From: Escherichia coli
GTDB lineage: Bacteria; Pseudomonadota; Gammaproteobacteria; Enterobacterales; Enterobacteriaceae
Assembly (NCBI RefSeq): GCF_003018255.1
Contig: NZ_CP027440.1
Reading direction: 5' to 3' (one strand)
DNA length: 64,000 bases
The translations under genes and the position numbers were made by a program. Below the pieces are notes generated by a model, which saw only the letters and a program-made list of their open reading frames with translations, had not been told where the DNA came from and searched no databases. Every line of letters begins with the position of its first letter. Within the stretch, counting starts at the first letter, position 1. Shown one piece after another: positions 1-28,262 of this stretch.

Positions 1-159
1 AACGCTGCGTCGAGCAGCTGGCGAACTGGCATAAAGAGCTGGAGGAGTATAAGAACGCCTCCCGGATTGATATTAAACCGTCACGGGAATATGCCAGCAC
101 AATCATGAACGCTATCTGGACTGGCGAGCCGAGTGTGATTTACGGCAACGTCCGTAACG
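1..159 (+). pseudogene. melA: melA alpha-galactosidase (GH4), upstream part of reading frame, interrupted by prophage insertion at ~159/160
   Basis: Frame 3 reads ...NAIWTGEPSVIYGNVRN then V-stop inside prophage end; same frame resumes at 39000 as NDGLIDNLPQG...DWLPGWLHR*. Confidence 0.7.
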
Positions 160-176
160 TATAGCGCGGCGATTTT

Positions 177-242
177 TTTGATACCGATTTGCATTTCATT
201 TGATACCGCTGAAAAACGCCGATACGCAACTTATTTGATACT
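177..242. repeat. Right-end transposase-binding site cluster (three TTTGATAC(C) repeats)
   Basis: tttgataccg at 177-186, ttgataccg at 199-207, tttgatact at 234-242; reverse complements occur at the other prophage end. Confidence 0.6.
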
Positions 243-287
243 AAATCGGCGCTTTTCTTTTGAGTTTTAGAATGAGTTTTTAAGCGC

Positions 288-1025
288 TCATTCACTCTCT
301 TTCAAACCAGTTTTAACTGTTTGTGGTTTTGGGTAAGGCTGGACTTTGAATAGCTTTGTGTTGAGGCGTTTTCTGGCCCTCTTGTTCAGAAACCGGATGT
401 AACGAAACTGTCGGAACTTATGCACACTGGCTCTGTCGATATTAGCCCTCAGATGTTCACCTCGTTGTCCGCCTCGTTTAATGGCACTCCTGCAAATCTC
501 GTGATACCACTCGCCATCAAGTTCATAGAATGTTGATTCATGGCTGCCTACATAATCAAAATTGCTTGCCTGATACACGACACCAAGACAGCCACAACGC
601 TCATCTGCAAACGACTGAACCCACTGTACCTGCGGATAAAGCTGCCTGATTAGCTTGAGCGCGTAACTGATTGCCCTTGATTCGGAGTTTCTCGGCATAC
701 AGTCATGCATCCATAGCCGGTTAAGCTCCATATATTCTCGGTTCTGCGTACCCGTTACGACGCGTGCACCACTGTTTGGGTTAAGGGCGTAACCCCATTG
801 CATTACGCCAACAAGTTCCCGTTCTGAAAATATACCCAGATGAAGGTAGGAATTATTTACGAAACGGTGGCTGTAATGTTTATTGACGATAACCAGTCTG
901 GCCAGCCAGCAACTTATTGTCTCAACCCGCAACTCACGGGAGCCATAACCAACGATATTGTCGTTATAGCGAATAAGTTCAGGCGTGCTGATGATACGGG
1001 ATGTGACTTGCTTTCTGTTCCCCAC
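288..1025 (-). CDS. mom: Mom-like DNA modification protein
   Basis: 245-aa ORF at the Mu right-end position, overlapping the 3' end of com as in Mu; assigned by position and resemblance to Mu Mom from memory. Confidence 0.8.
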
Positions 1026-1179
1026 GACAGGATTTCCTTGTGTATGTGGGGTGCTCTGTGGCGCTCGGAGATGTGATTTGATTGAGGGTTTTACAGCGCG
1101 GACATTTTACTTCCAGATAACTGAAACTGGCCCGTGCCAGTAGCTTATTGCAGTGTCGGCACCGTATGTTTCGATACAT
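979..1179 (-). CDS. com: Com zinc-finger translational activator of mom
   Basis: [14 protein letters not shown]...CPRCK matches Mu Com C4 zinc finger; ATG at 1179 preceded by AGGAGG; track start at 1224 is a TTG extension. Confidence 0.8.
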
Positions 1180-1380
1180 GGCCGCATAACCTCCTGCTTT
1201 GTTGTTGATGCCTTTCTCATGCAATCGATCGACAAAAACGATCGATTCGATTTGTTTAATTGATACAACAAATAGATTTAAAAGTCATCAACAATGATTC
1301 AGGGCGGTGATTATTTACTTAAAGAAACGAAGAGTTAGGTGGTGAAAACGATCATAAAATGATCATTTTATTGACTTTTT
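1180..1380 (-). promoter_or_regulatory. com-mom upstream regulatory region with clustered Dam (GATC) sites
   Basis: GATC at 1227, 1240, 1350 and 1361; palindrome cGATCAtaaaaTGATCa at 1349-1365; Mu Pmom is known to be controlled by Dam methylation of upstream GATC sites. Confidence 0.5.
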
Positions 1381-1585
1381 ATACAGTGAAGGTAGGATCG
1401 CGCGTATATGTAGTATGTTTCAAATCAACAGGATACTACATAAAAGGGAAACCCAGCATAGCTGGAACTATGCTGGGTCAATCTGTAAAAACTTGCATCA
1501 ATGCTTTACTTCGAGCTCGTGGCGTATCCTATGATATTCCCCGGTCTCCTGTAAAGCAGAGATGCATAAAAAGGAGATCTTTATC

Positions 1586-1756
1586 ATGGATAAAGAGCCT
1601 GTTTGCCCTGCCTGTAAGACTCCCTTACAGCTCATCTATCGCCGTTCTCGATCTCAAAATGGCAAGACATACAAACCAAAAAATGCTTCCTGTTTCAGGA
1701 TGCTGATATGTCCTGCCTGTTCTCCCCGGAGGGAAAATACACAAAACGTGCATTAA
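1586..1756 (+). CDS. Small zinc-ribbon protein (CPxC...CPxC), hypothetical
   Basis: 56-aa ORF MDKEPVCPACKTPL...LICPACS with AAGGAG Shine-Dalgarno 8 nt upstream of ATG; opposite strand to the late operon. Confidence 0.5.
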   Translation: MDKEPVCPACKTPLQLIYRRSRSQNGKTYKPKNASCFRMLICPACSPRRENTQNVH

Positions 1757-1794
1757 CAAATTCACCCGGCAGGGAAACCTGCCGGTCGGTATTG

Positions 1795-2040
1795 TTACAT
1801 CATAGTACCGTCAGTTCCGGGTTGAACCGGCTCTGGTTGCTCTACGGGTTGAGGCTCATTTTCCGTGCTGTTTTCAGCCGGAGAACGACCAACCATTCGG
1901 GCCAGCACTTCATCAACATATGCGTCGATTTGTGCCTCAAAATCCTTGCGAACCTGCGCCTTCAGCACGCGGTTCACTTCTTCAGAATAAAGTGCCTGTT
2001 TGACAAGCTCTTCAGTAACCGTGCCTTTAATCTCTGGCAT
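1795..2040 (-). CDS. Hypothetical acidic protein (81 aa), cargo
   Basis: ORF MPEIKGTVTEELVKQ... with Pro/Glu-rich C-terminus; downstream of esterase and small membrane gene on the same strand. Confidence 0.45.
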   Translation of the reverse strand: MPEIKGTVTEELVKQALYSEEVNRVLKAQVRKDFEAQIDAYVDEVLARMVGRSPAENSTENEPQPVEQPEPVQPGTDGTMM

Positions 2041-2075
2041 GAATATTCTCCTTTCCTTTTCTGGTTCACAAAAAA

Positions 2076-2255
2076 TTAAATCTGACCGGAGTCTTTCGGC
2101 TGCGGCATTACAGCACCGCTTTTTATCTTTTCCTCGGCAGCTGCATCAATTTTATTTCGAAAATAATTGCGAATAATTTTATAACCACCGCTGACAAGCA
2201 ACAGACAACAAACCACCGTGCAGAAATACAGCAGGCAGACGTTTATATATGTCAT
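2076..2255 (-). CDS. Small membrane protein (59 aa), hypothetical
   Basis: Hand translation MTYINVCLLYFCTVVCCLLLVSGGYKIIRNYFRNK...; N-terminal hydrophobic helix, GAGG SD upstream; below the 60-aa cutoff of the ORF track. Confidence 0.45.
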   Translation of the reverse strand: MTYINVCLLYFCTVVCCLLLVSGGYKIIRNYFRNKIDAAAEEKIKSGAVMPQPKDSGQI

Positions 2256-2312
2256 ATAAGCCTCACTCTTATTAACTGATGTTACAGCCGGATAAATTCC
2301 CGGCCGTCACGA

Positions 2313-4361
2313 TTATGCCGCAGGGGTATTAACCTCAAGGACAACGCTCTCAAAAGACACGCCATAAGTTGCCCCTTTGGTGACATCTGTCAGTGTCAGC
2401 GTATCTTTGGCAGGGGAAAGTGCATCTTTCACCATCTGGAATGCCTGGCCCGGAGTGCCATCCAGCACAGGCGTTACCTGGGCACTTCCCGCCGTAAACT
2501 TCAGGACAAGTGTATGCCACTGGTTATTGTAGGCTCCAAATGATCCCAGTTTCGTATTCCCCCCTGTTTTATGGTGCATCAGATTTAACTGGCCGCCTGT
2601 TGTCTGGAGATAATACGCCATCAGGAACGGTGTGCCTGTACCACTCATGGTTACACCTTCCGGGACCGTATCGGTGTGGAGGTAAATACCCAGAGCAAAC
2701 TGGCCTTCTTTTACTTCACCTGACAGACGGAATTTACAGGTCAACTGACCACCATGCTTCAGAAGTTCACCGGCTGCATCAGTTCCATGGGTAAGCGTCC
2801 AGGTTTTTCCGCTTTGTTTGGATACGGTCAACGCTTTACCTTCGTCCGTCAGCTGGATTGTACCATCTGTAATTTTCCAGCCCTGAGCCGGGGCTTCTCC
2901 TGCTGATGCTTTAAGTGAAAGCAGCGTACGGAGTGACGGGGATGTCGGATGGGGGGACTCACTGCCTCCTGGCTGACTACCTGTCGGCGCTTCCGGTTTC
3001 CCACCCGGCGCGGGCTGAGGCAGGGCTTCACCATCAGGGGCCACACCGGCAATAAATGCAGAGGTCAGACCTGCATATTTAAGAATTGCTGATGCAAAAC
3101 GATCTGAGACCAGAAAACGGCGCGCCCAGGAGCTAAAATGGGTTGCCCTGGATGCTGTTGTCCAGTTGCCATCTCCCCGTGATTCCGCACCATAATACCC
3201 GGCAGAAGCGATATCCGGGTCGTGCTCCGGCAGGTTGGTCGCGGTTTTATTACCGAACTCATCGTGCATCAGTGGAACAAAGTGAATGTTCTCGGAAGCC
3301 CGGTTTTTATATCCGCTATAAATGGTTTCATATGCCGCCGGGTTCTTCTCTTTCCAGTCATAGGTTGTGTCACCACATAACCACGGCACACTGTCTGATG
3401 AACCACCAATACACTGACCGGAGAAAGCACCAAGATCCGCACGGAATTTTTTCACCATCGCAGTAAACTGGGCACCATGCTGGGCCGGGGTCGCTTTAAG
3501 GTCTCCTTCCCCCTGAATCCATACGACAGATAACAGCACATTCTTTGGATTCGCCTCAAGTGCCGCTTTAGTTCGACTGACAAGATCCTGATACAGTGGG
3601 GTATCCACTCCCCAGCGTAGTGACGCCTCGGCTGCACCACTTGCCGGATCGAATGAGCCAACTGCGCCGGTTGTAAAAGCAGAGCCGCCACGGGCACAGG
3701 GAACCAGTAAAATCCCGGCATCAGCAGGAATCACCGGTAATACTTTTTTCGCAATATGAAGTCCCTGCCCCACACAACCATACTGCCCTTTTTTCAGGTC
3801 TGCTTTTGGATGGTTCAGCAGACTCATATTCTGAACATCATGAAGGCAGTGATCTGCTGGAATGATTTCATTGTATTTGCAGGGAATACCTCCGGGGGTT
3901 TGTGTATTCCTGCGTGCCAGCTGCATAATACGTGGATCAGGACGATCATAAGAATCCGGAAGGGGCAACCCTTCACCATAAGATGAAGCATTGGACTGGC
4001 CGGCTATAACAATCACGTAATACCAGGAAGGGGAGCTGGAAGCAGTTTCATTTCCTGACGGACGGGTATGTGTTTCAGCATTATCCCAGTCTGACGGTTC
4101 AGCAGTACCGGCAACATCAGCACTTAACGGAATGACCGCACCAATACCCGCTCCGGTAATTTCCACACTCGGATCACCGGATACTGGCCTTACCCACAGG
4201 CAATCCCGTGTATTAAAACTGATGAGACAGTCAGCAAATGTCATTCCTCCTTTTGTTTCGGCCGGAGGAAAGGGAGCCTCAAGAAATGCCGCTGTACCAC
4301 CGGAAACTTTAACAGTAAAGTTTCCGGGCATTGATGATAGTTGAACCCATTTGGACGTCAT
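2313..4361 (-). CDS. SGNH/SASA-family esterase (sialate O-acetylesterase-like) with Pro-rich linker and C-terminal beta-sandwich lectin-like domain; NanS-p-like
   Basis: 682 aa; GQSN nucleophile motif (VIAGQSNASSYG), WIQGEGD block, PQPAPGGKPEAPTGSQPGG linker, Gly/Thr-rich C-terminal domain. Confidence 0.55.
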   Translation of the reverse strand: MTSKWVQLSSMPGNFTVKVSGGTAAFLEAPFPPAETKGGMTFADCLISFNTRDCLWVRPVSGDPSVEITGAGIGAVIPLSADVAGTAEPSDWDNAETHTRPSGNETASSSPSWYYVIVIAGQSNASSYGEGLPLPDSYDRPDPRIMQLARRNTQTPGGIPCKYNEIIPADHCLHDVQNMSLLNHPKADLKKGQYGCVGQGLHIAKKVLPVIPADAGILLVPCARGGSAFTTGAVGSFDPASGAAEASLRWGVDTPLYQDLVSRTKAALEANPKNVLLSVVWIQGEGDLKATPAQHGAQFTAMVKKFRADLGAFSGQCIGGSSDSVPWLCGDTTYDWKEKNPAAYETIYSGYKNRASENIHFVPLMHDEFGNKTATNLPEHDPDIASAGYYGAESRGDGNWTTASRATHFSSWARRFLVSDRFASAILKYAGLTSAFIAGVAPDGEALPQPAPGGKPEAPTGSQPGGSESPHPTSPSLRTLLSLKASAGEAPAQGWKITDGTIQLTDEGKALTVSKQSGKTWTLTHGTDAAGELLKHGGQLTCKFRLSGEVKEGQFALGIYLHTDTVPEGVTMSGTGTPFLMAYYLQTTGGQLNLMHHKTGGNTKLGSFGAYNNQWHTLVLKFTAGSAQVTPVLDGTPGQAFQMVKDALSPAKDTLTLTDVTKGATYGVSFESVVLEVNTPAA

Positions 4362-4460
4362 AATAATCAGCCTGTTCCTGAATAAACTGAATTATCATAT
4401 CCACAGACCGATAAACGCCATTTTGCGTTAATTCAGTAAAGGCCCAACAAAGAGAGCGTC

Positions 4461-5021
4461 TTATTTTTCCGAAACGCTCGCAGGATAATAACGATAAAGG
4501 GTTGAAAGACCGATATCAAAAATAAGTGCCACCTGTCTTCGACTGACACCCCCGGCCAGTAAACGCCCGACCTGCTCGTATTGTTCCTGCGTGAGACGGC
4601 GGGGTCTGCCGCCGGTTCGTCCCCTTTCACGGGCAGCTGCAAGACCAGCCCGTGTCCGTTCGACAATTAATTCACGCTCCATTTCTGCCAGCGCACCCAT
4701 TATGTGAAAAAAGAAACGCCCCATGGGGGTTGACGTATCAATGTTGTCAGTAAGACTACGAAAATTTATCCCCTGTTGCTGTAATTCATCTGTCAGCGCA
4801 ACAAGGTGGCGCATACTGCGCCCCAGCCTGTCCAGTTTCCAGACCATCAGTGTGTCACCGGGTTTTAGTTTCTTCAGTGCCCGCTTCAGTCCCGGCCGCT
4901 GTGTCGTTTTACCACTCATTTTGTCTTCAAAAATCTGCTCACATCCTGCACATTCCAGCGCATTTCTTTGTAAACCGGTGTTCTGGTCATTTGTTGATAC
5001 GCGTATATAGCCAATCAGCAT
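4461..5021 (-). CDS. gin: Gin/Hin/Pin-family serine DNA invertase
   Basis: MLIGYIRVSTNDQNTGLQRNAL...GRFFFHIMGALAEMEREL closely matches Mu Gin. Confidence 0.95.
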   Translation of the reverse strand: MLIGYIRVSTNDQNTGLQRNALECAGCEQIFEDKMSGKTTQRPGLKRALKKLKPGDTLMVWKLDRLGRSMRHLVALTDELQQQGINFRSLTDNIDTSTPMGRFFFHIMGALAEMERELIVERTRAGLAAARERGRTGGRPRRLTQEQYEQVGRLLAGGVSRRQVALIFDIGLSTLYRYYPASVSEK

Positions 5022-5075
5022 GTATTTACCTTCCTTAAAAAGAGGTGAAAATGCCTTTTAAAACAGATATACGGT

Positions 5076-5101
5076 ATCCCTGAAAACCTCGGTTTACGGG
5101 A
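5076..5101. other. gix-like recombination site (gin-proximal)
   Basis: tccctgaaaacc-tc-ggtttacgggaa resembles Mu gix (TTATCCAAAACCTCGGTTTACAGGAA); 28-bp perfect inverted match with 6437-6464. Confidence 0.7.
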
Positions 5102-5471
5102 AACGGTAAATAAGGCTGCTGATGCCCTGCCATCGGGTGGAACCGCCGTGGCAGCAAACAGACTCGCCACCCCAAGAAATATTAATGGCGTTCCTTTTGA
5201 CGGAACGCAGGATATCAACATCACGTCAGGAATGACGCAGTCAACCGCAGATGGCCGGTATGTACAGAATGTTCAGCTTGGAGCACAGAGCTATCATTCA
5301 CCCGGAGGCAATGAAATATCATGGAATTACAGCGCACCTTCCGGTTGTATGCTTTCCGGTATTAACGTGCAGGAAACCGGCTCCCGGTCTGCGGACAATA
5401 TCGGTGGGGTCTATTATCGCCCGGTTCAGATTTATATTAATAATGCCTGGAGAACGGTAAGTTCAGTGTAA
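5091..5471 (+). CDS. Alternative tail-fibre C-terminal segment (Sv'), promoterless, expressed only after inversion
   Basis: Plus-strand frame GLRETVNKAADALPSGGTAVAANRLATPRNINGVPFDGTQDINITSGMTQS... parallels the C-terminus of the tail fibre on the minus strand. Confidence 0.65.
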   Translation, partial: GLRETVNKAADALPSGGTAVAANRLATPRNINGVPFDGTQDINITSGMTQSTADGRYVQNVQLGAQSYHSPGGNEISWNYSAPSGCMLSGINVQETGSRSADNIGGVYYRPVQIYINNAWRTVSSV

Positions 5472-5505
5472 ACCACAGAAAAGGGTGCTGAATGCACCCT
5501 CTGAA

Positions 5506-6138
5506 TTATTCCGGTTTTTCCGGCCAGGGAATCGCCTGGTAATGCCCCTCACTGGCAATATCATTAAAGTGCATTTCTTTAAGCTGTCGGATATACGCCA
5601 TCCAGCGCGTCAGCTGTAATTTATTTTCATCGCTAATCATGTCCAGTTTTAATTCTGTTTTCCAGTCATCCACGGTTTCGTTGGCTTCCTGGAGCAGCGA
5701 TGAGCGACGCTTTTCAGCAACCGTCTTCCAGTTTACCGGCACCTTTGATATCAGGCCATCAGAAAACTGCCAGTTACCGTCAATATTCACACCTTCCGGC
5801 AGTTCGTCCACTTCAACAACAGTAAAACCTGCCGGATATAAAGCAGAGACATCTTCAGCAACAGAGCAGATAATACCCGTTACAGGCGAAATACAGAGTT
5901 TGTATTTCTTTGTGAAAAGCGGGATAGATTCATAAAAATCCCTTCCGTCCTCACTCTGGAAATACTGAACATCCTCACCATAGGGTTTGTGTTCCGGGTA
6001 ATATCGTTTTACGTTAATAAGCTCCATTATTTCACCTTGTTTTTGTTGAAAAGACAAAATCATCATATATTTATTCAGATAATCTGTTTTTTGAACTACT
6101 GCACTTTTATGCGCTGGAAGCTGTTTTCCACGAACCAT
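5506..6138 (-). CDS. Tail fibre assembly chaperone (U/Tfa-like)
   Basis: 210-aa ORF immediately downstream of the tail-fibre variable part, inside the invertible segment. Confidence 0.7.
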   Translation of the reverse strand: MVRGKQLPAHKSAVVQKTDYLNKYMMILSFQQKQGEIMELINVKRYYPEHKPYGEDVQYFQSEDGRDFYESIPLFTKKYKLCISPVTGIICSVAEDVSALYPAGFTVVEVDELPEGVNIDGNWQFSDGLISKVPVNWKTVAEKRRSSLLQEANETVDDWKTELKLDMISDENKLQLTRWMAYIRQLKEMHFNDIASEGHYQAIPWPEKPE

Positions 6139-6994
6139 CTATCAGAAACTGAACAGGTCGATAATATGCGGTTACCGTTGCATTACCATCACCAGCGACA
6201 TCAAGCCCTGTAAGTACGCATCCGTCAGGAACTTCAAAAATATTATATTGCATTCCAATCGTTGACCTTGAACCTCTTCGAATGCTTTGAACATAACGTG
6301 AGTCAGCCACAGACTGCGTCATCCCCGATGTAATATTTATATCCTGCGTTCCGTCAAATGGGACACCATTAATATTTCTTGGAGTGGCGAGTTTATTCGC
6401 TGCAACAGCCGTTCCGTTCGATGGCAGGGCATTCGCCGCCTTATTTACCGTTTCCCGTAAACCGACGTTATCGATAAAAGCGCCTTTATCCGGAATGTCT
6501 GCGCCGTTCTGCTCCCTGCGCAGGTAACGGTTATCACCTTCGCTTTTGCTGTAAACATCCAGATTATTACGGGCGGTTCCCGCATTCTCCAGGTCGGCAA
6601 GGTTCTGATCCTTCGCCAGAGCATTAACGTCACCGGGACCAAGACTGTTTTTTGTGGCAAGCGCCCCAAGACCAAGATAACCACGGGCAAGACGCTGGGC
6701 TTCCGCACCGGCATCAGCAATTTCTTTCAGGTTGTTTTTCCGGGAAAAGGCATTCGCAGCGATAATGGCTTTAATGGACAGCGTAAGCTGGTTTAACTGC
6801 GCCTTATCCGGCTGAATACTGGCTTCAGCCAGAATATTCAGCAGTTCGGCCTGGAGAATATTCAGCCAGTCCTGACCAATCCAGCTGATACCTTTTTGTC
6901 CGTCACCTTCGGTAAACCAGGTGGTGGTATTACTCTGCGCCGGTGCCAGCGCAGGCATATTCGCCACGCCGGAATTATTATCAACATGAAACAT
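6107..6994 (-). CDS. Tail fibre protein S (constant N-terminal part plus invertible C-terminal part)
   Basis: 295 aa; C-terminal ~115 aa lie within the invertible segment; crossover falls at IDNVGLRETVNK. Confidence 0.75.
   Translation of the reverse strand: MFHVDNNSGVANMPALAPAQSNTTTWFTEGDGQKGISWIGQDWLNILQAELLNILAEASIQPDKAQLNQLTLSIKAIIAANAFSRKNNLKEIADAGAEAQRLARGYLGLGALATKNSLGPGDVNALAKDQNLADLENAGTARNNLDVYSKSEGDNRYLRREQNGADIPDKGAFIDNVGLRETVNKAANALPSNGTAVAANKLATPRNINGVPFDGTQDINITSGMTQSVADSRYVQSIRRGSRSTIGMQYNIFEVPDGCVLTGLDVAGDGNATVTAYYRPVQFLIDGSWKTASSA
6451..6475. other. gix-like recombination site (inside tail fibre gene)
   Basis: ttcccgtaaacc-ga-cgttatcgata; inverted partner of 5076-5101. Confidence 0.7.
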
Positions 6995-7554
6995 TAAATA
7001 GTCTCCTCTTCATGGCTGTTTGCATACACGTAAATAAACGTCTGCCATGCAGGCTTATAACGGTTCAGAATACATTCCAGCGCACCGCCTTCATAAATAC
7101 GCAGCGGCGTGAGAATATCATCCAGCACATTCATATTCCGGTAGCCGGTTTCACTGTTAATCGTGACAATACTGACCCACTGTGAATCCGGTGATGGCTG
7201 AATATCTATTTCATAACCAAACTCTGCCGCAAACCGGATATAAAATTCACGGTTAAGAGAGGGTTTCATCCGGTATTTATTCCCGGCATAACGCTGACGC
7301 TCCTGAATGGTTGCGCCGGTCATATCACATTCCGGTAACCCCAGATAACGCTCCCAGTCTTCCAGCAGCAGACGGGATGAATCAGGAAAACGTTCTGCCA
7401 GCATCTGGTTACCGGTCCAGGAAACACGCTCCGTGGAATGACTGAGGCCCAGGCACAAAGCCGCAAGAACGGATGACGGCCGCTTATCCCATGCCAGCCC
7501 GTCAGGCAGCAACTGCAACAGGGCACGCTGATGCGGGGTCAGGGTTACAGCCAT
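6994..7554 (-). CDS. Tail/baseplate protein (Mu gp48-like)
   Basis: Position between baseplate J-like gene and tail fibre. Confidence 0.6.
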   Translation of the reverse strand: MAVTLTPHQRALLQLLPDGLAWDKRPSSVLAALCLGLSHSTERVSWTGNQMLAERFPDSSRLLLEDWERYLGLPECDMTGATIQERQRYAGNKYRMKPSLNREFYIRFAAEFGYEIDIQPSPDSQWVSIVTINSETGYRNMNVLDDILTPLRIYEGGALECILNRYKPAWQTFIYVYANSHEEETI

Positions 7555-8630
7555 GTGATTTCCCCCACGGTCAGCAACTCTGTATCTCCGGCCATCACGG
7601 ACTTCAGCGGGCTGCGAACTTCAAAATCCTCCAGTCCTTTCACCCCTGCAACAGCCCGCCAGAATGATGAAGGCAATACAAGTCCACCCGGCCGCGATTC
7701 GTTATAAAGCAGGTCCGTTAATGCCTGTTTTACGGCAGCCTGATTTTCCGGCGTTTTGGGTACAATCCTGATCTCAAACGCCACCGGCTTATTGGTCAGC
7801 TTAAACACGCTGATTGTCGGCCCAAGTGGCTGACCAACGGGCTGGCCCGTCGCCGGATCATCATGACTGCGGATATAATCCGCCACCCGCTTCACATCAC
7901 CTTCTCCGGGGAAAATGTCAGGGTTATTATCCTGAACAAAAGTCACACCAACACTACCCGCCTCAGGCCATTCAGGCTTACACCATGCCCGCGTCACGCC
8001 CGGTACTTCCCGTGCCCAGCGTTCAAAATCATACTGTGTTCCCCCTGATGGCGGGTTCTGTACCCGGAATACCAGCCTGGACAGCAACTCCGGCACCGTT
8101 TCCACATCCGCACCACCGGTGAGTCCCGTGCCGGTGACCGTGGCTGTCTGGTTGATGCCCGCCTGTGGCGTGATAAAGGACAGGCGGGTTCCGGTCGGGG
8201 TATTTCCAGCGCGCCCCGCACTTTCCGCCTCCACATTAACATTCAGTGTTCCGGCTTTTCCGGTCGCAGAGCCGGTGATGCGGTACACAACACCATCGCT
8301 TCGCTGAAGGAGTACGCCTTCCGTGATCCCTGCATCCGTGGTCAGCATCAGTTGTACCGGTCCGTCAGCGCGGGAAGCCGGTTTACGGATGACACCCCAG
8401 AATGCGCAGTGTTTCAGGAGTTCGGCTTCATCAGCTTCTGTCGGAATTATCTGCCGGGAGATCCAGGCCAGATGTTCATGCTCCTGTGCTGACAGACCCG
8501 CCAGTGCATACGCAATGGCATTCAGGGTGGTTTCATTCACGCCCGGCTGCGAACCGGGCAGGCGCTGGCTGATATCCTGTTGTGTCTGTGTGATCAGTTG
8601 CGCCAGTGGTAAGGGCTGATAAGGCATCAT
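7545..8630 (-). CDS. Baseplate J-like protein (Mu gp47-like)
   Basis: 361 aa, position and size. Confidence 0.7.
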   Translation of the reverse strand: MMPYQPLPLAQLITQTQQDISQRLPGSQPGVNETTLNAIAYALAGLSAQEHEHLAWISRQIIPTEADEAELLKHCAFWGVIRKPASRADGPVQLMLTTDAGITEGVLLQRSDGVVYRITGSATGKAGTLNVNVEAESAGRAGNTPTGTRLSFITPQAGINQTATVTGTGLTGGADVETVPELLSRLVFRVQNPPSGGTQYDFERWAREVPGVTRAWCKPEWPEAGSVGVTFVQDNNPDIFPGEGDVKRVADYIRSHDDPATGQPVGQPLGPTISVFKLTNKPVAFEIRIVPKTPENQAAVKQALTDLLYNESRPGGLVLPSSFWRAVAGVKGLEDFEVRSPLKSVMAGDTELLTVGEITWL

Positions 8631-9064
8631 TCCCCCTTCATATCAGCATAAAAAATCATCGGATGTCTGCTTCCGTCCGGCAGGGTGATTTTCACGGAAA
8701 GCGAAAGGCGAGCATGCCCCACACGCATGGCATGGCATACCACGGATGTGGCAGCACCGCTTTTATGCAGCCACGCCAGCGCTTCATCAGCATAGGCCTG
8801 TGCACGGCTGACCACGGAGGACAGCGTCTTTTCACGGCTTAACAGCCAGAGACGGGAGCCAACGGGGCGCTCCCGGAAACTGTCTCCCCACCATCCCCGA
8901 CGGTCACGGGTGCCGTCAGGGATTTCATCGGAATCCAGCGCCCGCCTGTCCGTAAACAGTGAAATAATGACCGCAGTCAGCAGGCTGTTATCCGTCAGAA
9001 GATCTGCGCCGTTCAGTTGCAGGGAACCGCAACCCTGATCCCAGACGACAGCAATATCAGCCAT
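8627..9064 (-). CDS. Baseplate protein (Mu gp46-like)
   Basis: Likely start MADIAVVWDQ at 9064 (track ORF 8627-9277 is an upstream extension overlapping the previous gene). Confidence 0.6.
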   Translation of the reverse strand: MADIAVVWDQGCGSLQLNGADLLTDNSLLTAVIISLFTDRRALDSDEIPDGTRDRRGWWGDSFRERPVGSRLWLLSREKTLSSVVSRAQAYADEALAWLHKSGAATSVVCHAMRVGHARLSLSVKITLPDGSRHPMIFYADMKGE

Positions 9065-9671
9065 TCTCTGGTCCTCCCGTTTTGCTGCCTTCACCGTTAT
9101 CGTGATGCACATGACCTGAATAGGTGATCCCGGCAATAACCGCTTCGGACATCGTGAACGTCCCCTGTGATCTTCCGGTGCCGTCAATGGACACATTGCC
9201 TTTGACATGCAGGTTCTTATCCACTGTGACATTACCGGTAAAGTGAGCCTCCGGTGTATCCACCTGAACACCTTCATCGGCGTAAATCTCCAGCGTCTTA
9301 CAGGTCACAATGATCCGGCCGTTCTTTGTCAGACGTATACGGTGCCCCTCATGGTGATACACGCCGGTATCTCCGGCGGTAAGTCCGGTCGGGCGACTGC
9401 GGCGGTCTTCCACCACAAGCACCACGGCCTGATCCCGTTGTCCGCCAGCACAGGCCAGAAAAACTTCCGCACCAGGCAGGGGGACGCTGATTTGCCCGTA
9501 CTGCTGGGGGCGTTCAACGTCATCAAAGGTTTCACCATCCATACCGGTGATTTGCACATTCTGGATTTTTAGCGTGTCCGTTGTGCCGGTCAGTACACCA
9601 CGCCCGAACAGCAGACGAACACCCCGCATTACGGGGGCCAGAAGGCGGCTGATGACTTCGTCATTCATCAT
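9057..9671 (-). CDS. Baseplate spike/assembly protein (Mu gp45-like, gpV-like)
   Basis: 204 aa, position. Confidence 0.65.
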   Translation of the reverse strand: MMNDEVISRLLAPVMRGVRLLFGRGVLTGTTDTLKIQNVQITGMDGETFDDVERPQQYGQISVPLPGAEVFLACAGGQRDQAVVLVVEDRRSRPTGLTAGDTGVYHHEGHRIRLTKNGRIIVTCKTLEIYADEGVQVDTPEAHFTGNVTVDKNLHVKGNVSIDGTGRSQGTFTMSEAVIAGITYSGHVHHDNGEGSKTGGPENG

Positions 9672-10785
9672 TGAATTTAATCCCCTGTTTTTTCATCTGT
9701 GCCCGCACGAAGGCGTCCACGTCACCCGCATTTCCGCTTCCGCTGTTTCCCGGCTCTGCCGGAACAATAAAGCCGTCACGGGGTGCCAGAATCAGACGGG
9801 TGGTTTCGCCGTGATTTGCATCCAGCGAAAACTCCACCTGACAGACAAGAAGATCACGCTCTTCCACTCCGGTGCGGGGAGCCGTGACAGCCGTCAGCAG
9901 GTTGATATCCCACAACTGGCCGTTCTCCCGAAACCAGTGCCGCACGGTGGCTGTCAGGCGCACAGAGCGGGCAACCGCCCGGCGCATTTCTCGGACAGCC
10001 CTCTGGCGTGCACCGTCTGCATCAACAGCATGATCCGCCAGCACAATTTTCGGTCTGTAACGGTGGATGGCACTGTCTGTCACCGTACCAACGGGTGCGG
10101 CCAGCGTTCCGGCTGTCAGTGCATCCCCGGCATGACCACCACCACGCCCGTGCCCCCGTACACGGTATTCACTGTGGCGCAGACGGTGATCCACGTTGTG
10201 ATCCAAATCCAGCAGATTTTCGCCCAGCGTCAGCGTGTCGCCACGCTGACTGCCGGCCTGAGTGAAAACCAGTTCACCGGCGGCATTACTGGTTACCAGG
10301 ACGCCTCTGTGTCTCGCGGCCCGTGTCAGCGCATCTGCCACGGTTTCTGAGTTTTCCAGTGTGAAGGTGGAAAAGGGCCGGGCTGCCGTTGCATCATTTA
10401 CCTGCCAGCGCACCGTGACCCCGAACGGAGCACACAAATCTGAAGCAATGTGCTCCAGCGTGCGGTTCCTCCACTGGCTGCCCGGATGAATGGCTGAACA
10501 GTCCACCAGGTCACCGGTTTTATCCCGTCCGCTGAGCGTGATCTGAAAACGCGTGGCGCTGATGCGCTGCCGGACCTGATCCAGCCAGCCAGTGATCACA
10601 GGCTGACCGTCAATGCGCAATTCCAGAGACTGACCGGCACGGACGGATGACGGAAGGCGTACACCGGGCATCATTACCCCCAGTTCAAAGGAGCCCGCCA
10701 GATGTTCAAGAGAGCGACGAACACTCACCGTCAGCCAGCCGGAAAAAATCTCACCGCCCAGATACAGTTCAACCCTGCTGCTCAC
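9661..10785 (-). CDS. Baseplate hub protein (Mu P/gp44-like)
   Basis: 374 aa, position after N-like gene. Confidence 0.7.
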   Translation of the reverse strand: MSSRVELYLGGEIFSGWLTVSVRRSLEHLAGSFELGVMMPGVRLPSSVRAGQSLELRIDGQPVITGWLDQVRQRISATRFQITLSGRDKTGDLVDCSAIHPGSQWRNRTLEHIASDLCAPFGVTVRWQVNDATAARPFSTFTLENSETVADALTRAARHRGVLVTSNAAGELVFTQAGSQRGDTLTLGENLLDLDHNVDHRLRHSEYRVRGHGRGGGHAGDALTAGTLAAPVGTVTDSAIHRYRPKIVLADHAVDADGARQRAVREMRRAVARSVRLTATVRHWFRENGQLWDINLLTAVTAPRTGVEERDLLVCQVEFSLDANHGETTRLILAPRDGFIVPAEPGNSGSGNAGDVDAFVRAQMKKQGIKFNDE

Positions 10786-12139
10786 TAATCACCTCCACTG
10801 AATGGCCTCCGGGAATGAACAGCGGATCAACAATACCGTTACGGCGCACAAAACGTTGCCAGCCGGTACTGTTCCCGGTGGCACGGTACAGGGTCACCAG
10901 TGCAGGCTCGGTGGTACGTACAGTCACTACTGTTGCACCGGGTAGCTGAACTCCCCGTGTATTCAGATCCTCTGTCAGTGCCAGTCTGGCATCACGAAGC
11001 GTCAGCGCCGTGGCGGTATACCCCTGCCCGGACAGTGTCATCACCTGCCGTTCGAGCGCTTCGCTTAAGTCACGGTTAATGCGCTGAAGATCAACTGAAC
11101 TTTCCAGCCAGACAGGCCAGGTACGGTGGGCTGCGTCACTGTCCGGCAGGGTTTCCTGACTGAGAACCTGATCCAGCAGTTTTCCCACGGTCTGTGCCTG
11201 GGCCACCACGGCAGCACTCTGCATTACCGCCCGTATCAGACGAATATTCTTTTGTGCTGCCGGTGTCAGACCGATGAGAGTCTGCGGATTATCCTGCTCA
11301 TCCAGCACGTAACGCAGGGAAGATAATGTCCTGTACAGTTGCGGCATTCCCTGAGAGACGGCGGATGTCGTCCGGCCGATACTGCCACCGGGCCGGGTAT
11401 TCAGGCCTCCTGAAGACAGTGACGGCAGCGATGGCAGGGTGATCAGGGCACTGAAAAGCCCCGCAAAAGATGAGGCCATGCGGGAAGGTGCTGTCAGTAA
11501 TGCCGTGGCATTCCCTTTCAGCGCCGTGAACGTGGCAGTAAAGGCACTGATATCCTGTACAATCCCCATGCCGGAAACGGCATTTTCCAGGGCGGACACC
11601 TTATCGCTGATGGTTTCGGTCATTGCCTGGACATCGTGCATTCCGTCAGAAATCACCGTCCAGCCCGCTTCCAGGGTTTCAAAAACCTTCCCGAGCGCGG
11701 TGGTACTCTTCTGCTCCAGAATGGCGGCCGTGTCCTGTGTGACAGCAGGTGCGGTATCATCACTTACCGGCGTGACATTAATGGTGAACTCAACCACGCC
11801 CTGTTCAGCAGCGTTATAACGACTTTCAAAGCTGTTTATCAGCACATTTAACGTGCCGTAATCCGGGTGAAGCAGCTCCCCGGCACCGGGAGCACGAAGG
11901 GCATCACGCAGACGATTTCGCTGTGTCTGAACATCATCCCCCATCACAAGTACACTGAACGTAAATTCAGCCAGTTTAGGTCCCAGATCGTCTGCACCAC
12001 CGGTTTCCCGTAACGGATATTCCCGACGGACAATGTTTCGCCCGCCACGTTCGCGCTGCTCACGCCAGACGAGGAACGGCACACCACGGAACGCACCACG
12101 ACCGTCACCAGAGGCCATAATTCCCTCCGTTCCAGACAT
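10769..12139 (-). CDS. DNA circularisation protein N-like (Mu gp43)
   Basis: 456 aa between tape measure and baseplate hub. Confidence 0.7.
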   Translation of the reverse strand: MSGTEGIMASGDGRGAFRGVPFLVWREQRERGGRNIVRREYPLRETGGADDLGPKLAEFTFSVLVMGDDVQTQRNRLRDALRAPGAGELLHPDYGTLNVLINSFESRYNAAEQGVVEFTINVTPVSDDTAPAVTQDTAAILEQKSTTALGKVFETLEAGWTVISDGMHDVQAMTETISDKVSALENAVSGMGIVQDISAFTATFTALKGNATALLTAPSRMASSFAGLFSALITLPSLPSLSSGGLNTRPGGSIGRTTSAVSQGMPQLYRTLSSLRYVLDEQDNPQTLIGLTPAAQKNIRLIRAVMQSAAVVAQAQTVGKLLDQVLSQETLPDSDAAHRTWPVWLESSVDLQRINRDLSEALERQVMTLSGQGYTATALTLRDARLALTEDLNTRGVQLPGATVVTVRTTEPALVTLYRATGNSTGWQRFVRRNGIVDPLFIPGGHSVEVISEQQG

Positions 12140-14180
12140 TCACATCCAGTCCGTGACCGGACGTGTCATCAATATCAATACTGCGAGCCTGCCACCCTTC
12201 CGGGGCAACCAGCTCCACACGGGCAGAGGCTTTTTGTACCGCCTGTCCACTGCTTTCATCATCACTGCCCCGTAATTTCTGCCAGGCTTCAGTCAGCCAT
12301 CCCCCCAGATAGTTACCGAGATAGCTGCCCACCGTAGAACCAATGGCAATCCCCACAGGTCCGGCTGCCGCCCCCAGCGCACCACCGGCAATACTGCCTG
12401 CAAGAGAGCCGACCGCTTCTCCCTTGTCTGTGGCACTGGCGCTGCCATCCAGCAGAACCGGGGCTGCCATCGCGCCAGCCCACAGGGCACCTCCACCCAG
12501 CCGGCCGGCCAGTCCACCGGCACTGCGGAAAAAGCCGGAGAAACGCCCCAGCCCCATGCGGCTACCGACAGACGAAAGTAACCCACCGGCGCGCCCCATC
12601 ATGCGCCCCCAGAACCCTGCCCCACCAGAAGAGGGAGACGGTGGCACTGGGGACGGTGGCAGGGGAGGCGTGACCGGTCTTCCGCGCCCCGGTCCGCGTT
12701 TCCTGCGGCCCCGCCCCTGACGTCCGCCTGAGGATGTATCGGTCGCGCCGGTGCCGGACAGTCCTCCTGTGGGCCAGTTTGTTACAAGTACTGGCTGAAC
12801 GGCTGCCGGATTTACCCCGGTAAGAAAGTTTATAAAACGTTGCCCTCGTCCCTGAGATGTGCCTGGTGGTGTTCCGGCCGGAGGAGAGCGCCGGAAAGGT
12901 GAAGTCAGGAAGGCCGCCGCTGATAATCCGTATCCCAGCAATGCAGCACCCGGACGTATAATCCCCGTTCCGACAGCCCGCGCCATTTTCAGGGCACGGG
13001 TGGCGAGATACATGTACAGCAGGTATTTCGCGGCAGTCTGTGCCCCCTGACCAATGCGATCCAGCGCATCACCATAGCCCGCATCCCGCAGAGCCTGAAG
13101 CGTGTCGCGTACCTTTCTGATCGCCTGATAAAACCCTGTCACTGCATCACGGGCATACTCAAAGCCCTGGTTCATGGCTGATGCCGTGCTTTCCGCCAGG
13201 GAATGGTAACTGCCATCAGATTTGGCACTGTCAACCCATGAAAGAAATCCCCTGAGATTACCCTTCAGTTTTTCAAATGGCCCACTGTCCATCACATCCC
13301 GGGCAAACTGGTCCCAGACGTCACCCATCATGGCCGTCAGGCCACTCCAGGAATTCATTGCGTCCTTTTGTGCTCCCCTGGCCTGTTCCGCCAGCGTCTG
13401 AAATAACAGGCGAATACTGTCCGGCCCAAGCAGCCCTTTTTCACCAAGTTTTCTGACCACTTTCTGGTCCACACCCAGACGATCAGCCAGCACGCGGTAG
13501 GCATTAATGCCGTAGGTGGCAAGAATATTTGCATCCGCCGCCTGAATACTGCCTCTTGCATACATCTGTTTCAGTTGCAGGGATGCCCCCTGTGCATCGG
13601 ACAGTGACCAGCCGCCCACGGCCCCCTGATCCTGAAGCATGGTGACAAAATTTCGGGCCTCCCTGTCACTCATACCAAAGCCCAGACTGGACGTATATTC
13701 CTGCATGACGCCAGCCAGCCCCCAGGTGGTTTCCTTCGCATTCTGTATTGCCCACCTGCGGACATCATCCGTTTTCGCCCGATCCCCTTTGTAAAGGGAG
13801 TTCAGGCGAATCATATAGGTTTCCATCTCCGCTGCCGGGCGAATAAATCCCCGGTTAAAGCCATATACAGCAGCACCACCGGCCAGCATTCCGTAAAGAT
13901 TGCTGATCCGCCCGATGGTGCCGGTAATACTGCCCTGAAGACGGTCAAAATCAGAAGTGACATGGCGGATACTGCCCCGCACCCCGGCCAGCGTGCGCTG
14001 CATCCTGCTTCCGAGTACATCTGTTTCCTGCCCGGCACGGCGGGCAGCATTTCCCAGGCCACCCAGCCCCGCCTGGCCGGAGCGTGAGAATGCCCCCAGC
14101 TCCTGTGACCACTGGCGGGATTTGGCTGAGATATTGCCGAGCAAATCAACTATCAGAGATGCTCTGAGATTTCGGGCCAT
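12105..14180 (-). CDS. Tail tape measure protein
   Basis: 691 aa with long Gly/Ala/Pro-rich low-complexity region; lies downstream of tail tube and chaperone. Confidence 0.8.
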   Translation of the reverse strand: MARNLRASLIVDLLGNISAKSRQWSQELGAFSRSGQAGLGGLGNAARRAGQETDVLGSRMQRTLAGVRGSIRHVTSDFDRLQGSITGTIGRISNLYGMLAGGAAVYGFNRGFIRPAAEMETYMIRLNSLYKGDRAKTDDVRRWAIQNAKETTWGLAGVMQEYTSSLGFGMSDREARNFVTMLQDQGAVGGWSLSDAQGASLQLKQMYARGSIQAADANILATYGINAYRVLADRLGVDQKVVRKLGEKGLLGPDSIRLLFQTLAEQARGAQKDAMNSWSGLTAMMGDVWDQFARDVMDSGPFEKLKGNLRGFLSWVDSAKSDGSYHSLAESTASAMNQGFEYARDAVTGFYQAIRKVRDTLQALRDAGYGDALDRIGQGAQTAAKYLLYMYLATRALKMARAVGTGIIRPGAALLGYGLSAAAFLTSPFRRSPPAGTPPGTSQGRGQRFINFLTGVNPAAVQPVLVTNWPTGGLSGTGATDTSSGGRQGRGRRKRGPGRGRPVTPPLPPSPVPPSPSSGGAGFWGRMMGRAGGLLSSVGSRMGLGRFSGFFRSAGGLAGRLGGGALWAGAMAAPVLLDGSASATDKGEAVGSLAGSIAGGALGAAAGPVGIAIGSTVGSYLGNYLGGWLTEAWQKLRGSDDESSGQAVQKASARVELVAPEGWQARSIDIDDTSGHGLDVNVWNGGNYGLW

Positions 14181-14306
14181 ACTTACTGCTTCGTTCTGAT
14201 GATTTTTTCTGTCTGTCGGCAGTGCCGGTAAAGTTGCGACAGGGGGAGGTTAAGCGCCCATTCCGGACCGCTTTTTGTCACCATCCCCAGGATAATTGCC
14301 GCTTCT

Positions 14307-14801
14307 TCAATCTGATCCCGACACTGCGCCTGATCGCCCCCGGTCAGCTGCCAGCTTTCCGGCAAGCGCGGTATCCAGCAGGCTGACCGCTGCCATCAGG
14401 CGGGAGAGATCGCGCTCGCTTAACTGTCCAATCTGACGGGGTGACAACGGACCTTCAATGTCTCCCACTGCGGCAATCTGACGGCGCAGCAGTGCAACAC
14501 CGCGTAACGACGGAGACGCTATCAGCATCGGGCCATTGTTTGTCTCCACCACGCGCTCGGCTTCTGCTTCTGCGTCAATACTGTCTTTCGCTGTCAGTTC
14601 CCGGAACGTGACACGATATTCACGGGTCTCACCAAACGGCAGACCATCAAGCAGATCCACATATCCCTTTGCCAGTTGCTCTGTCAGCCCGGCAGTGCGT
14701 GGATCAGCCCCCTCAAGTGCTTCCCGGATTGCCTCCATCACGGCTGCCTCGGAAACTGCCGTTTTTTTCTTACGTGTGGTCATTTTATTTTTCCTGATCA
14801 C
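14307..14801 (-). CDS. Tail assembly chaperone (possible frameshift extension into 14183-14365 frame)
   Basis: 164-aa ORF between tail tube and tape measure; overlapping +1-frame ORF runs to the tape measure start. Confidence 0.6.
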   Translation of the reverse strand: MIRKNKMTTRKKKTAVSEAAVMEAIREALEGADPRTAGLTEQLAKGYVDLLDGLPFGETREYRVTFRELTAKDSIDAEAEAERVVETNNGPMLIASPSLRGVALLRRQIAAVGDIEGPLSPRQIGQLSERDLSRLMAAVSLLDTALAGKLAADRGRSGAVSGSD

Positions 14802-15163
14802 TGAACACGGGTACTGGTGGCGCTGGCGAACTTCACGGAGATCTCCCCGCCACCGTCAAGCGAGGCCGGTTCACTGCTCCAGGCCTTCGTCATCATGTGG
14901 ACTTCGCCGGTATCCGCCACAAACTCGATAGTGACCGCAGTCCAGTTGTTGATTTCATCAGCGGCTGGTGAGCCTTCTCCGCCTGCCGGAAATTTGCAGT
15001 CCAGCGTCGCTTCACGTGGTTTCTGGCGGTAACCATAGACTTTCGCGCCTTTCACCACTTCACGTTCAAAACCTGACGGAGAAAATGTAGCCCCCTCAAG
15101 CGTCTCGTATTCCTGACCGTTCACACGGATAGTGGCCGTGCCCTGATACTGTTTTCCGCTCAT
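14798..15163 (-). CDS. Tail tube protein (Mu M-like)
   Basis: 121 aa immediately downstream of sheath. Confidence 0.75.
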   Translation of the reverse strand: MSGKQYQGTATIRVNGQEYETLEGATFSPSGFEREVVKGAKVYGYRQKPREATLDCKFPAGGEGSPAADEINNWTAVTIEFVADTGEVHMMTKAWSSEPASLDGGGEISVKFASATSTRVQ

Positions 15164-15171
15164 GCCTTACC

Positions 15172-16674
15172 TCACAAAATGAAACGGATCTGTGCTGCCA
15201 GGAAGCGGAACTGGTTAACCAGATCCGGCGTGCATAACACGTCAAGACGGTTTCGATCTGACGCATTACGCTCCACAAGCAGATTCTTTTTAAAGGTGTC
15301 CAGATTTTCGACCAGCCCGAGTTCCACCCACTCTTCACCCAGCGAAATTAACTGAAGCTTCATGATCTCCGGCGTCACGATATTCTGACCGGCACGAACG
15401 GGCGTCCCGTCATCAGCCAGTTTATGGCGCGGAAAACGTTGTGTGATAAAAGTACGCAGGGAATAACGCAGCCAGGAGAGGGTGTAGATGGTTTCCACAT
15501 CCAGATAGCTGGGATCACTTTCGCCGTACACGTTCTGGCGATACATGGTCACCTGACGTTCGATCTGAACCACATCACCGGCAGCCACACTGACCGTGGC
15601 AATCCCTCCCCACAGCAGACTGTTACGCTCTTCACGCGTCAGACGATCGGCCGGAGCCGGGGCCATGCGTGACGGAAGCGCCAGCGTCTGAAGCGGACGC
15701 GCAGGATCTGCTCCCAGAGAGGGTGCACAGGTGGCACAGACCGCCGCTGCCCAGAGGTAATCCGGTTCAGGGGCTTTGGGAATGGATGTGCAGGTCGCCA
15801 GAAAATCATTGCGTTTTGCCCCGAATGCCTGCACCTCACCAAACGTGCCGGTATGTGCCAGCCACAGCACGCCGTCAGACATTTTGGCCGGTCCCCAGCG
15901 TTTCAGAAGCTCATCACTGATGATTTTCAGGTTTGCATCATCCTTATAGGGCATGACGACATAGTTGTACTGGCGATCGCCCATCCCCGCCACGCTTCGG
16001 GTGATATCCGGGTTAGCCGCTTTTTGTTTCGGATAGGCTATAGCGACCTGTATTCCTTCCGGGGTTGCTTCCCCGTCGTGATAGTTCAGGCGCACATCAT
16101 GAACGGAGCATTCACCGGTAAAGCGGGCGGTGATCCCCAGAGACCCTTTCAGACCTGCGCCATTATCACCACTTCCTGCACCAGAGGAGGCCGTGAAGGG
16201 CGCGTCAGGATCGGCATTGATCAGCGCGGCCAGCTCGTCGGTCAGTTCTTTGCCTTTCTTACCTTTTGGTGCCGGGAGTGTATAACGCCGCCCCCCCACG
16301 CAGGCATAAACAATCCCGTCACGGGTGACCGTTCCGGTCAGATTCATGGCCGCAGCCGTTGCCTGTCCGGTGCCGTTCCCCTGAGCAATGGCATACAGTT
16401 CAGCATCAGGATTGATGGCGATAAATTCCGCCACCATCAGGGCAATCATGGAACCGCGCCCCCAGAGTTCTGTTGCCTGAGACGCACGGGTGATCCTGAC
16501 CGGAACATCCAGAACACCGGCACCGTCCACGGCATTCTCTTTCATTCTCGCCTGACCAAACAGCAGCACACACTGACGCTGTGCCGGAGTGCCGGTGACA
16601 GCCATGGAGTTATTAAACTCAACCTCAATCAGCGGTATACGGCGGTCATTACCGATCCCGTCAAAATTAATCAT
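15172..16674 (-). CDS. Contractile tail sheath protein (Mu L-like)
   Basis: 500 aa, position. Confidence 0.85.
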   Translation of the reverse strand: MINFDGIGNDRRIPLIEVEFNNSMAVTGTPAQRQCVLLFGQARMKENAVDGAGVLDVPVRITRASQATELWGRGSMIALMVAEFIAINPDAELYAIAQGNGTGQATAAAMNLTGTVTRDGIVYACVGGRRYTLPAPKGKKGKELTDELAALINADPDAPFTASSGAGSGDNGAGLKGSLGITARFTGECSVHDVRLNYHDGEATPEGIQVAIAYPKQKAANPDITRSVAGMGDRQYNYVVMPYKDDANLKIISDELLKRWGPAKMSDGVLWLAHTGTFGEVQAFGAKRNDFLATCTSIPKAPEPDYLWAAAVCATCAPSLGADPARPLQTLALPSRMAPAPADRLTREERNSLLWGGIATVSVAAGDVVQIERQVTMYRQNVYGESDPSYLDVETIYTLSWLRYSLRTFITQRFPRHKLADDGTPVRAGQNIVTPEIMKLQLISLGEEWVELGLVENLDTFKKNLLVERNASDRNRLDVLCTPDLVNQFRFLAAQIRFIL

Positions 16675-16916
16675 TGCGGTTTCTCCTTATCGGATGCCGG
16701 TTGGGCGACCGGTTTTTCTGTCGCAGTCGTTGCATCCGCAGATACAGCCGGAGCCTCTTCAGCGGCTTTTTCAGCCTGAATGACATCGCCGTCATCAAGA
16801 CGCCGACACCAGAACGGCGTAAAGGGCTTTTCCTCCCCCTCCTGTGCCAGCGGGCGCATTGTGTCGGGATCACGAATCAGGCGTCCCGGCGCGGGTTTGA
16901 TAAAGATGGTTTTCAT
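16671..16916 (-). CDS. Hypothetical protein (Mu gp38-like)
   Basis: 81-aa ORF coupled to sheath gene. Confidence 0.5.
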   Translation of the reverse strand: MKTIFIKPAPGRLIRDPDTMRPLAQEGEEKPFTPFWCRRLDDGDVIQAEKAAEEAPAVSADATTATEKPVAQPASDKEKPQ

Positions 16917-18243: not shown

Positions 18244-18286
18244 ATTTGCCCTCCGCAGGGGCCGGGCCGTAAGCCCGGCTCACCGT

Positions 18287-21008: not shown

Positions 21009-21129
21009 ATTGCCTCCGTATAAAATATGAATATAAAATAAGCAGGCGGTCAGTGTACGCTTAACTGGTAAAGTCGGTGCCTGCCTCCGGGTGGATCATG
21101 TATGCGGGTTCGACCCCCGCCACTGACCG

Positions 21130-26279: not shown

Positions 26280-26281
26280 CG

Positions 26282-28261: not shown

Positions 28262-28262
28262 T

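Follow-up and report, generated by a model that had tools for sequence, protein, structure and literature searches.

The window examined here is a stretch of 64,000 nucleotides of Escherichia coli DNA (contig NZ_CP027440.1) in which melA, the gene for alpha-galactosidase, is split by a transposable prophage. The prophage is oriented against the numbering of the window, with its left (c-repressor) end at 38999 and its right (com/mom) end at 160 (Table 1). Its gene content is taken from the annotation of near-identical copies, and its genes stand in the same order as in Mu: repressor, ner, A, B, gam, mor, lysis, head, contractile tail, gin-invertible segment, and com/mom. All 17 ORFs that were checked are open (repressor, ner, A, B, gam, mor, terminase-like, portal, head, protease, capsid, sheath, tape measure, gin, DUF6645, com, and mom).

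Table 1. Features of the prophage and its junctions with melA (positions in the window)
Feature	Position	Strand	Basis or remark
melA (alpha-galactosidase), 5' part	1..159	+	broken after ...VRN; frame 3 translation; ~5,400 E. coli genome matches
Target-site duplication, copy 1, AACG	156..159		single AACG in the empty site
Sp18-type Mu-like transposable prophage, 38,840 bp	160..38999	-	both boundaries recur at many unrelated sites
Right terminal dinucleotide	160..161	+	5'-TA read inward, or ...TATA-3' on the transferred strand, where Mu has CA; invariant in fetched copies
Right-end repeats (presumed transposase-binding sites)	177..244	+	R1 177-187 TTTGATACCGA, R2 199-209 TTTGATACCGC, R3 234-244 TTTGATACTAA
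mom (245 aa)	288..1025	-	ORF intact; RefSeq annotation of identical copies; ~71% nt identity to Mu/D108 mom
com (66 aa)	979..1179	-	ORF intact; RefSeq annotation
B protein, MuB-like AAA+ target-delivery ATPase (310 aa)	34493..35425	-	Pfam Phage-MuB_C 2.5e-25, AAA_22 4e-18
Transposase A (680 aa), DDE core of integrase (rve) type	35497..37539	-	Pfam Mu-transpos_C 1.4e-17; rve sub-threshold only
ner-like HTH regulator (88 aa)	37598..37864	-	ORF intact; annotation of near-identical copies
c-type repressor, HTH (203 aa)	38021..38632	+	ORF intact; annotation of near-identical copies
Left-end repeats (presumed transposase-binding sites)	38825..38982	-	L1 38972-38982, L2 38877-38887, L3 38825-38835
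Left terminal dinucleotide	38998..38999	-	5'-TG (CA on the + strand); TG in 56/60 sampled copies
Target-site duplication, copy 2, AACG	39000..39003		single AACG in the empty site
melA 3' part resumes (NDGLIDNLPQG...)	39000..39300	+	frame and comparison with CFT073

Some parts of the prophage vary among copies. When the early module (35497-38632) is compared with those of the copies L007-L010 and L117, at least three alternatives are seen behind identical ends; they differ in the repressor, in the ner-like gene, and in the N-terminus of the transposase (680, 695, and 696 aa), a pattern that suggests swapping of the immunity module while the part that recognizes the ends stays. A DUF6645 gene of 672 aa (2313-4331, minus strand; 672-689 aa among copies) lies between gin and com, and beside it is an ORF of about 460 nt (approximately 1294-1756, plus strand) that is frameshifted in most annotated copies and intact, at about 154 aa, in Sakai-type copies. 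RefSeq places a “tRNA-OTHER” of 80 nt in most copies, L001-L006 among them, between the head-morphogenesis and virion-morphogenesis genes. At the corresponding positions of the window (about 21049-21128), ARAGORN finds no tRNA, and Rfam at the gathering threshold finds no tRNA or RNA family. The host part of the window has an ordinary tRNA gene at 56955-57027 (minus strand; Rfam 68.3 bits).

At the first junction (159/160), the host sequence ends with GTCCGTAACG, of which the last four bases are 156-159, and continues into TATAGCGCGGCGATTTTTTTGATACCGA, so that the first prophage base is 160. At the second junction (38999/39000), TCGGTATCAAATGATTCACCTGGTTACA reaches to 38999 and is followed by AACGATGG, with AACG at 39000-39003 and ATGG next. 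An earlier note on this DNA, made from the sequence alone, had proposed an alignment to an uninterrupted melA in order to define the exact junctions. In the melA of strain CFT073, the 5' part and the sequence from 39004 onward are contiguous, and the uninterrupted gene reads GTCCGTAACGATGG, with AACG once only. Deletion of the prophage together with one AACG restores the melA frame, with 4 mismatches to CFT073 over 404 nt. Because the empty site has a single AACG and excision restores the frame, the duplication in melA is exactly 4 bp, and the alignment yields no canonical 5-bp repeat. The would-be fifth duplicated base is A in melA, whereas T occupies position 160.

Read inward, the end at 38999 is TGTAACCAGG and the end at 160 is TATAGCGCGG. 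The strings on which the earlier note was built (TG at one end, TA at the other, AACG on both flanks, and T at 160) are all present where it had placed them. Its distance of 17 nt between terminus and first repeat holds for both ends, as TTTGATACCGA begins at nt 18. Measured from the terminus, the three repeats start at 18, 113, and 165 nt on the left and at 18, 40, and 75 nt on the right. The window has 8 occurrences of the core motif TTTGATACY where 0.92 would be expected, and none of 100 shuffles reaches 8. Six of these eight occurrences lie within 175 nt of the termini, three per end, and every one of the six faces inward. By analogy with the R1-R3 layout of Mu, the repeats of the TTTGATACCGA type are presumed to be binding sites of the transposase. 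Two further exact copies of the core TTTGATACC occur inside the prophage (35441-35449, plus strand, and 18815-18823, minus strand), one of them in the short gap between the A and B transposition genes.

Constancy of the ends in other genomes

When positions 1-1,200 of the window are compared with other genomes, about 225 E. coli genomes match the prophage part only, beside many different host genes. At the right boundary, all of the matches listed start at or before 160 and none later. At the left boundary, where 33 of the records listed cover at least 80% of the query, the matches that pass through the prophage end stop at 38999 with few exceptions; these either extend 2-6 nt by chance or, in divergent relatives, stop at 38997. 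The first seven copies compared have identical ends, and at the independent sites for which the complete prophage or its two junctions were compared the termini are the same, 5'-TGTAACCAGGTGAATCATTTGATACC ... GGTATCAAAAAAATCGCCGCGCTATA-3'. About 4% of complete E. coli genomes, most of them from STEC, carry a member of the family to which these copies belong, here called the Sp18 type after prophage Sp18 of O157 Sakai.

Searched by BLAST, the outermost 100 nt at the right are found in 282 locations across 231 E. coli genomes and are at least 99% identical in 219 of 233 records. In 60 of 60 evenly spread records, including copies only 92-93% identical, the match begins at nt 1. This means that TA is kept in all of them, since BLAST would not start there if the second base differed. 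The left end is found at 283 places, and the sampled matches start at nt 1 (TG) in 56 of 60 records and at nt 3 in the other 4. Among IMG/VR sequences, right ends are TA in 16 of 16 cases, beside 15 distinct flanks, and left ends are TG in 9 cases and TA in 4. A lineage whose left end is about 80% identical, represented by the mouse strains M18 and M3, starts with 5'-TATAACCAGG and has TA at both ends. On the transferred strand, the terminal A is invariant and the preceding base is C or T.

The earlier note had set two readings of the right terminus side by side: a point mutation, possibly immobilising the prophage, and a family-specific end. It had also allowed that related phages might share the TA terminus, and they do, in the 60 sampled E. 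coli copies and the 16 IMG/VR right ends alike. A CA-to-TA change in the transferred strand of this copy alone, which perhaps fixed it in melA, has in its favour that TG..CA ends are the rule for Mu and for most DDE elements (PMC3562280). Yet every examined copy has TA, next to more than 30 different flanks, and the distinct flanking genes exclude assembly duplicates of a single locus. Moreover, a copy in strain War, inserted in the portal gene of another prophage, differs from the window copy at 3 of 38,840 nt. So small a difference at another site indicates a very recent move of this phage with its TA end already in place, and the checked ORFs are all intact. A private mutation is therefore extremely improbable, and the family-specific end is the reading that stands.

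Two pattern searches in species-representative genomes are uninformative on the range of the family beyond E. coli: a strict two-end pattern gives 0 matches, and a looser end pattern gives 58 chance matches in unrelated taxa and none in Enterobacteriaceae.

Length of the target-site duplication

With the ends fixed by the constant terminal sequence, duplications were called at 16 independent insertion sites. All 16 have an exact duplication of 4 bp, and none has an exact one of 5 bp. In phage orientation, the duplications are CGTT in melA (the window), CATA in etk, CACG in gabP-gabT, CCAG in the prophage portal gene of strain War, ACTA in ydeE, CAAT in sbmA, TGTT in dprA-recQ, GTAC in an MFS gene, CGTG in bcsA, TAAA in sorM (Sp18 of Sakai), TACC in hsdR of M18, CGCA in flgL of M3, AACA and AGAA in the first and second IMG/VR pairs, and GATC in phsC and CGGA in yeaW of strain 8479. 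The same procedure applied to Mu as a control returns TG..CA ends and 5-bp duplications (GCCGC and TCCAG) at both independent sites compared, one in E. coli W and one in APEC E19057; strain B-766 was left out because it has the same Mu insertion as strain W. The 5 bp that the earlier note had expected are thus correct for Mu and do not apply to the Sp18 family, in which the length is 4 bp. When symmetrised, the 16 duplications lean toward Y-R-Y-R (21-23 of 32 per position), and 16 sites are too few for a claim of target preference.

Ends shifted by 1 nt, which would give duplications of 5 or 6 bp, were considered and ruled out: among the 16 sites, the terminal A is matched by the fifth base upstream of the left end at 1 site and the initial T by the fifth base downstream of the right end at 4, and both counts are at chance level. 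The same counts bear on the suggestion that the duplication is really 5 bp, with one base mutated in this copy or with an end called 1 nt off, so that the terminal T/A belongs to the host. The annotation of Sp18 in Sakai (NC_002695.2, 5040971..5079729) is consistent with such a reading, as it appears to have been drawn as if an imperfect 5-bp repeat, TAAAT/TAAAG, were assumed. Its first base is the G of the terminal TG, so that it starts 1 nt within the left end, and its last base lies 5 nt into sorM, whereas the constant sequence places the ends at 5040970..5079724 (L016/L017). The empty melA, however, has A after AACG and not T, and the terminal bases are constant beside varied flanks. A true 5-bp duplication has accordingly only a minute probability.

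A single 4-bp match arises by chance once in 256 trials, and three copies elsewhere (L004, L005, and L010) lack a duplication, the flank on one side being unrelated to that on the other. Both facts could be taken to mean that no transposition occurred and that the repeat in melA is a coincidence of illegitimate recombination or assembly. Yet 16 exact 4-bp matches at 16 unrelated sites have a chance probability of about 3e-39, removal of the prophage with one copy of the repeat restores melA precisely, and one of the three copies without a duplication proves to be a recombinant of two insertions, each with its own 4 bp. Coincidence can be dismissed for practical purposes.

That recombinant, L004, lies on NZ_CP074995.1, the “plasmid” p8479-1 of 166,865 bp, which carries the chromosomal genes ydhX, phsC, and yeaW together with one Sp18-type prophage. 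Reciprocal flanks were predicted for a chromosomal copy in the same strain and then found (L117, NZ_CP074994.1, 2099300-2139100). The phsC site has GATC at the plasmid left flank and the chromosomal right flank, and the yeaW site has CGGA at the chromosomal left flank and the plasmid right flank. The two copies differ in their early modules (680-aa and 696-aa transposases); therefore, they represent two separate insertions that later recombined, freeing a chromosomal circle of 166 kb. Judged from these sequences, p8479-1 is either a circle excised between two directly oriented prophages or the assembly of a mixed population. The duplication is missing from L004 because this copy recombined with a second one, and the pair adds two 4-bp cases to the count. 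The other two copies (L005 from strain 142, NZ_CP028609.1, and L010 from strain 48, NZ_CP166879.1, a strain with 5 matching places) are probably products of similar rearrangements between copies. Pairs of Sp18-type prophages drive large rearrangements, of which the circle in strain 8479 is an example.

Transposition proteins and a proposed mechanism

The transposase of the window is about 24% identical to MuA over 429 residues. MuA matches the Pfam families DDE_2 (2e-136), HTH_Tnp_Mu_2 (3e-48), HTH_Tnp_Mu_1, and Mu-transpos_C. Of these, Mu-transpos_C is matched by both Sp18-type transposases (680 and 696 aa), and HTH_Tnp_Mu_1 is matched weakly, above the curated cut-off in the 696-aa form and below it in the 680-aa form of the window. 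Neither Sp18-type transposase has a Pfam match to DDE_2 or to HTH_Tnp_Mu_2, the I-gamma end-binding domain, and both have sub-threshold matches only to the integrase core (rve) families. A search of PDB sequences with the transposase returns weak matches to retroviral integrase cores, in which the motifs SDNGS and IIERLNR align to the second Asp and the Glu of the catalytic triad; MuA is not matched in this search. The GDG motif of the transposase aligns to D269 of MuA, and on these alignments the catalytic triad is likely D293, D359, and E399. The B protein is, by its sequence, a clear MuB homologue. Because both the catalytic core and the end-binding domain differ from those of MuA, a different stagger and a different terminal preference are unsurprising.

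The nearest phage transposases are those of Yersinia vB_YpM_5/6 (79%), Klebsiella Kp4866-3 (58%), and SuMu and Mannheimia 3927AP2 (about 44%). Transposases of D3112-like Pseudomonas phages are about 30% identical to the Sp18 type, and that of Mu falls below the search cutoff.

In all, it is very probable that positions 160-38999 of the window are an intact phage of the Sp18 family that transposed into melA, and that the normal ends of this family are TG (in a minority, TA) on the left and TA on the right, with a duplication of 4 bp. The TA end is then no lesion, and the insertion in melA is an ordinary, intact, and probably mobile prophage. The steps of its transposition can be sketched by analogy with Mu (PMC3562280). 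Transposase A, with a DDE core of the integrase type and aided by the MuB-like ATPase, would bind the end repeats and nick after the terminal A at each end, as the junction sequences suggest, leaving ...ACA-3' on the left and ...ATA-3' on the right. Both 3'-OH ends would be joined to target phosphates that, again judging from the junctions, lie 4 nt apart, and gap repair or replication would fill in the 4-bp duplication. The end requirement would seem to be YA (pyrimidine-A) rather than CA. CA and TA are the most easily unstacked dinucleotide steps, which would fit the substitution of T for C.

The asymmetry of the ends might also be regulatory rather than a neutral trait of the family, for example if the right end were a weaker or differently timed substrate. 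The right TA is invariant and the left end polymorphic (about 93% of the copies sampled have TG and about 7% the variant), and the two ends of Mu are functionally non-equivalent (PMC3562280). However, the TA..TA lineage of M18 and M3 transposes with 4-bp duplications at two different sites, so a left TG is not required. A regulatory role is unlikely.

Comparison with known systems

Sp18 of O157 Sakai was described as a Mu-like prophage that is predicted to be intact and whose DNA is packaged, but that is not inducible by mitomycin C (PMC2669165). The lack of induction fits Mu-like behaviour and is no proof of activity. Sp18-like phages of STEC have been reported at strain-specific sites (PMC7430833, PMC10132054). 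In Sakai, the prophage has the ends 5'-TGTAACCAGG ... GCGCTATA-3', identical to those of the window over at least 25 nt on the left and 30 nt on the right, a 4-bp duplication in sorM, and the same gene order. The difference lies in the early module: Sakai-type copies encode a 696-aa transposase, whereas the window encodes a 203-aa repressor and a 680-aa transposase. Morgan et al. 2002 (J Mol Biol 317:337) reportedly compared the ends of Sp18 with those of Mu. The accessible literature does not state the terminal dinucleotide or the duplication length of Sp18-type phages, and earlier notice is possible; the family itself is already known, and its 4-bp duplication and TA end are apparently unremarked.

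By transposase, several phages are closer relatives than Mu: the Pseudomonas B3/D3112 group, SuMu, Mannheimia 3927AP2, Yersinia vB_YpM_5/6, and Klebsiella Kp4866-3. Accessible papers do not report the duplication length and terminal dinucleotide of these closer relatives. Three Mu-like prophages of Citrobacter rodentium (CRP28, CRP49, and CRP99) transpose experimentally and have direct repeats of 3-7 bp with no defined length (PMC3072379). They share with the Sp18 type the character of enterobacterial Mu-like prophages. Some structural proteins of the M18 and M3 copies carry RefSeq accessions (e.g., WP_012908603.1) that presumably occur in C. rodentium as well.

Reviews and surveys give as the hallmark of transposable prophages TG..CA ends with a duplication of 5 bp (Mu) or 6 bp (B3 and Leptospira) (PMC8705779). 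Phage KS10 lacks TG..CA (PMC2628397). Duplication length varies among transposable phages, that of Pseudomonas phage B3 being 6 bp, and transposable prophages of Leptospira have TA-TA ends and 6-bp duplications (PMC8705779). The Leptospira elements are a precedent for TA in place of TG/CA, and the M18/M3 lineage is likewise TA..TA. They differ in having unrelated hosts and 6 bp rather than the 4 bp of M18 and M3, and the window copy has TG/TA. Boundary callers that assume TG..CA and a repeat of 5 bp (or 6 bp), as in PMC8705779, will misplace the ends of Sp18-type prophages.

In the broad sense, the Sp18 type is Mu-like. Beside one end lies an early operon that encodes a repressor, a ner-like regulator, the DDE transposase A, and the AAA+ protein B, and insertions with short duplications occur at many unrelated sites (16 distinct sites, dozens of flanking genes). 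It has the genome plan of Mu, D108, and SfMu, near-random insertion, and three repeats per end (L1...L2-L3/R1-R2-R3) that are presumed to bind the transposase. The accessory architecture, as read from the sequence, is kept from Mu: a MuB-like ATPase, 3+3 end repeats, and Mu-transpos_C. In the strict sense it shares with Mu the com/mom modification module at its right end and the tail-fibre segment inverted by gin, and departs from Mu in other traits: Mu has TG..CA ends on both sides and duplicates 5 bp (the control above; PMC3562280), with DDE_2 and HTH_Tnp_Mu_2 as the catalytic and I-gamma domains of MuA, and end repeats unrelated in sequence to those of the Sp18 type. There is about an even chance that the Sp18 type is a natural Mu-like system in which both the terminal CA and the 5-bp stagger have changed (to YA and 4 bp) while the Mu accessory architecture was kept, and that this has so far gone unremarked. 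If so, the family would be a comparative model for how transpososome geometry sets the length of the stagger and for the role of the conserved CA. For structural and biochemical studies of both questions, an architecturally close cousin of Mu with a 4-nt stagger and with T tolerated for C offers a natural point of contrast.
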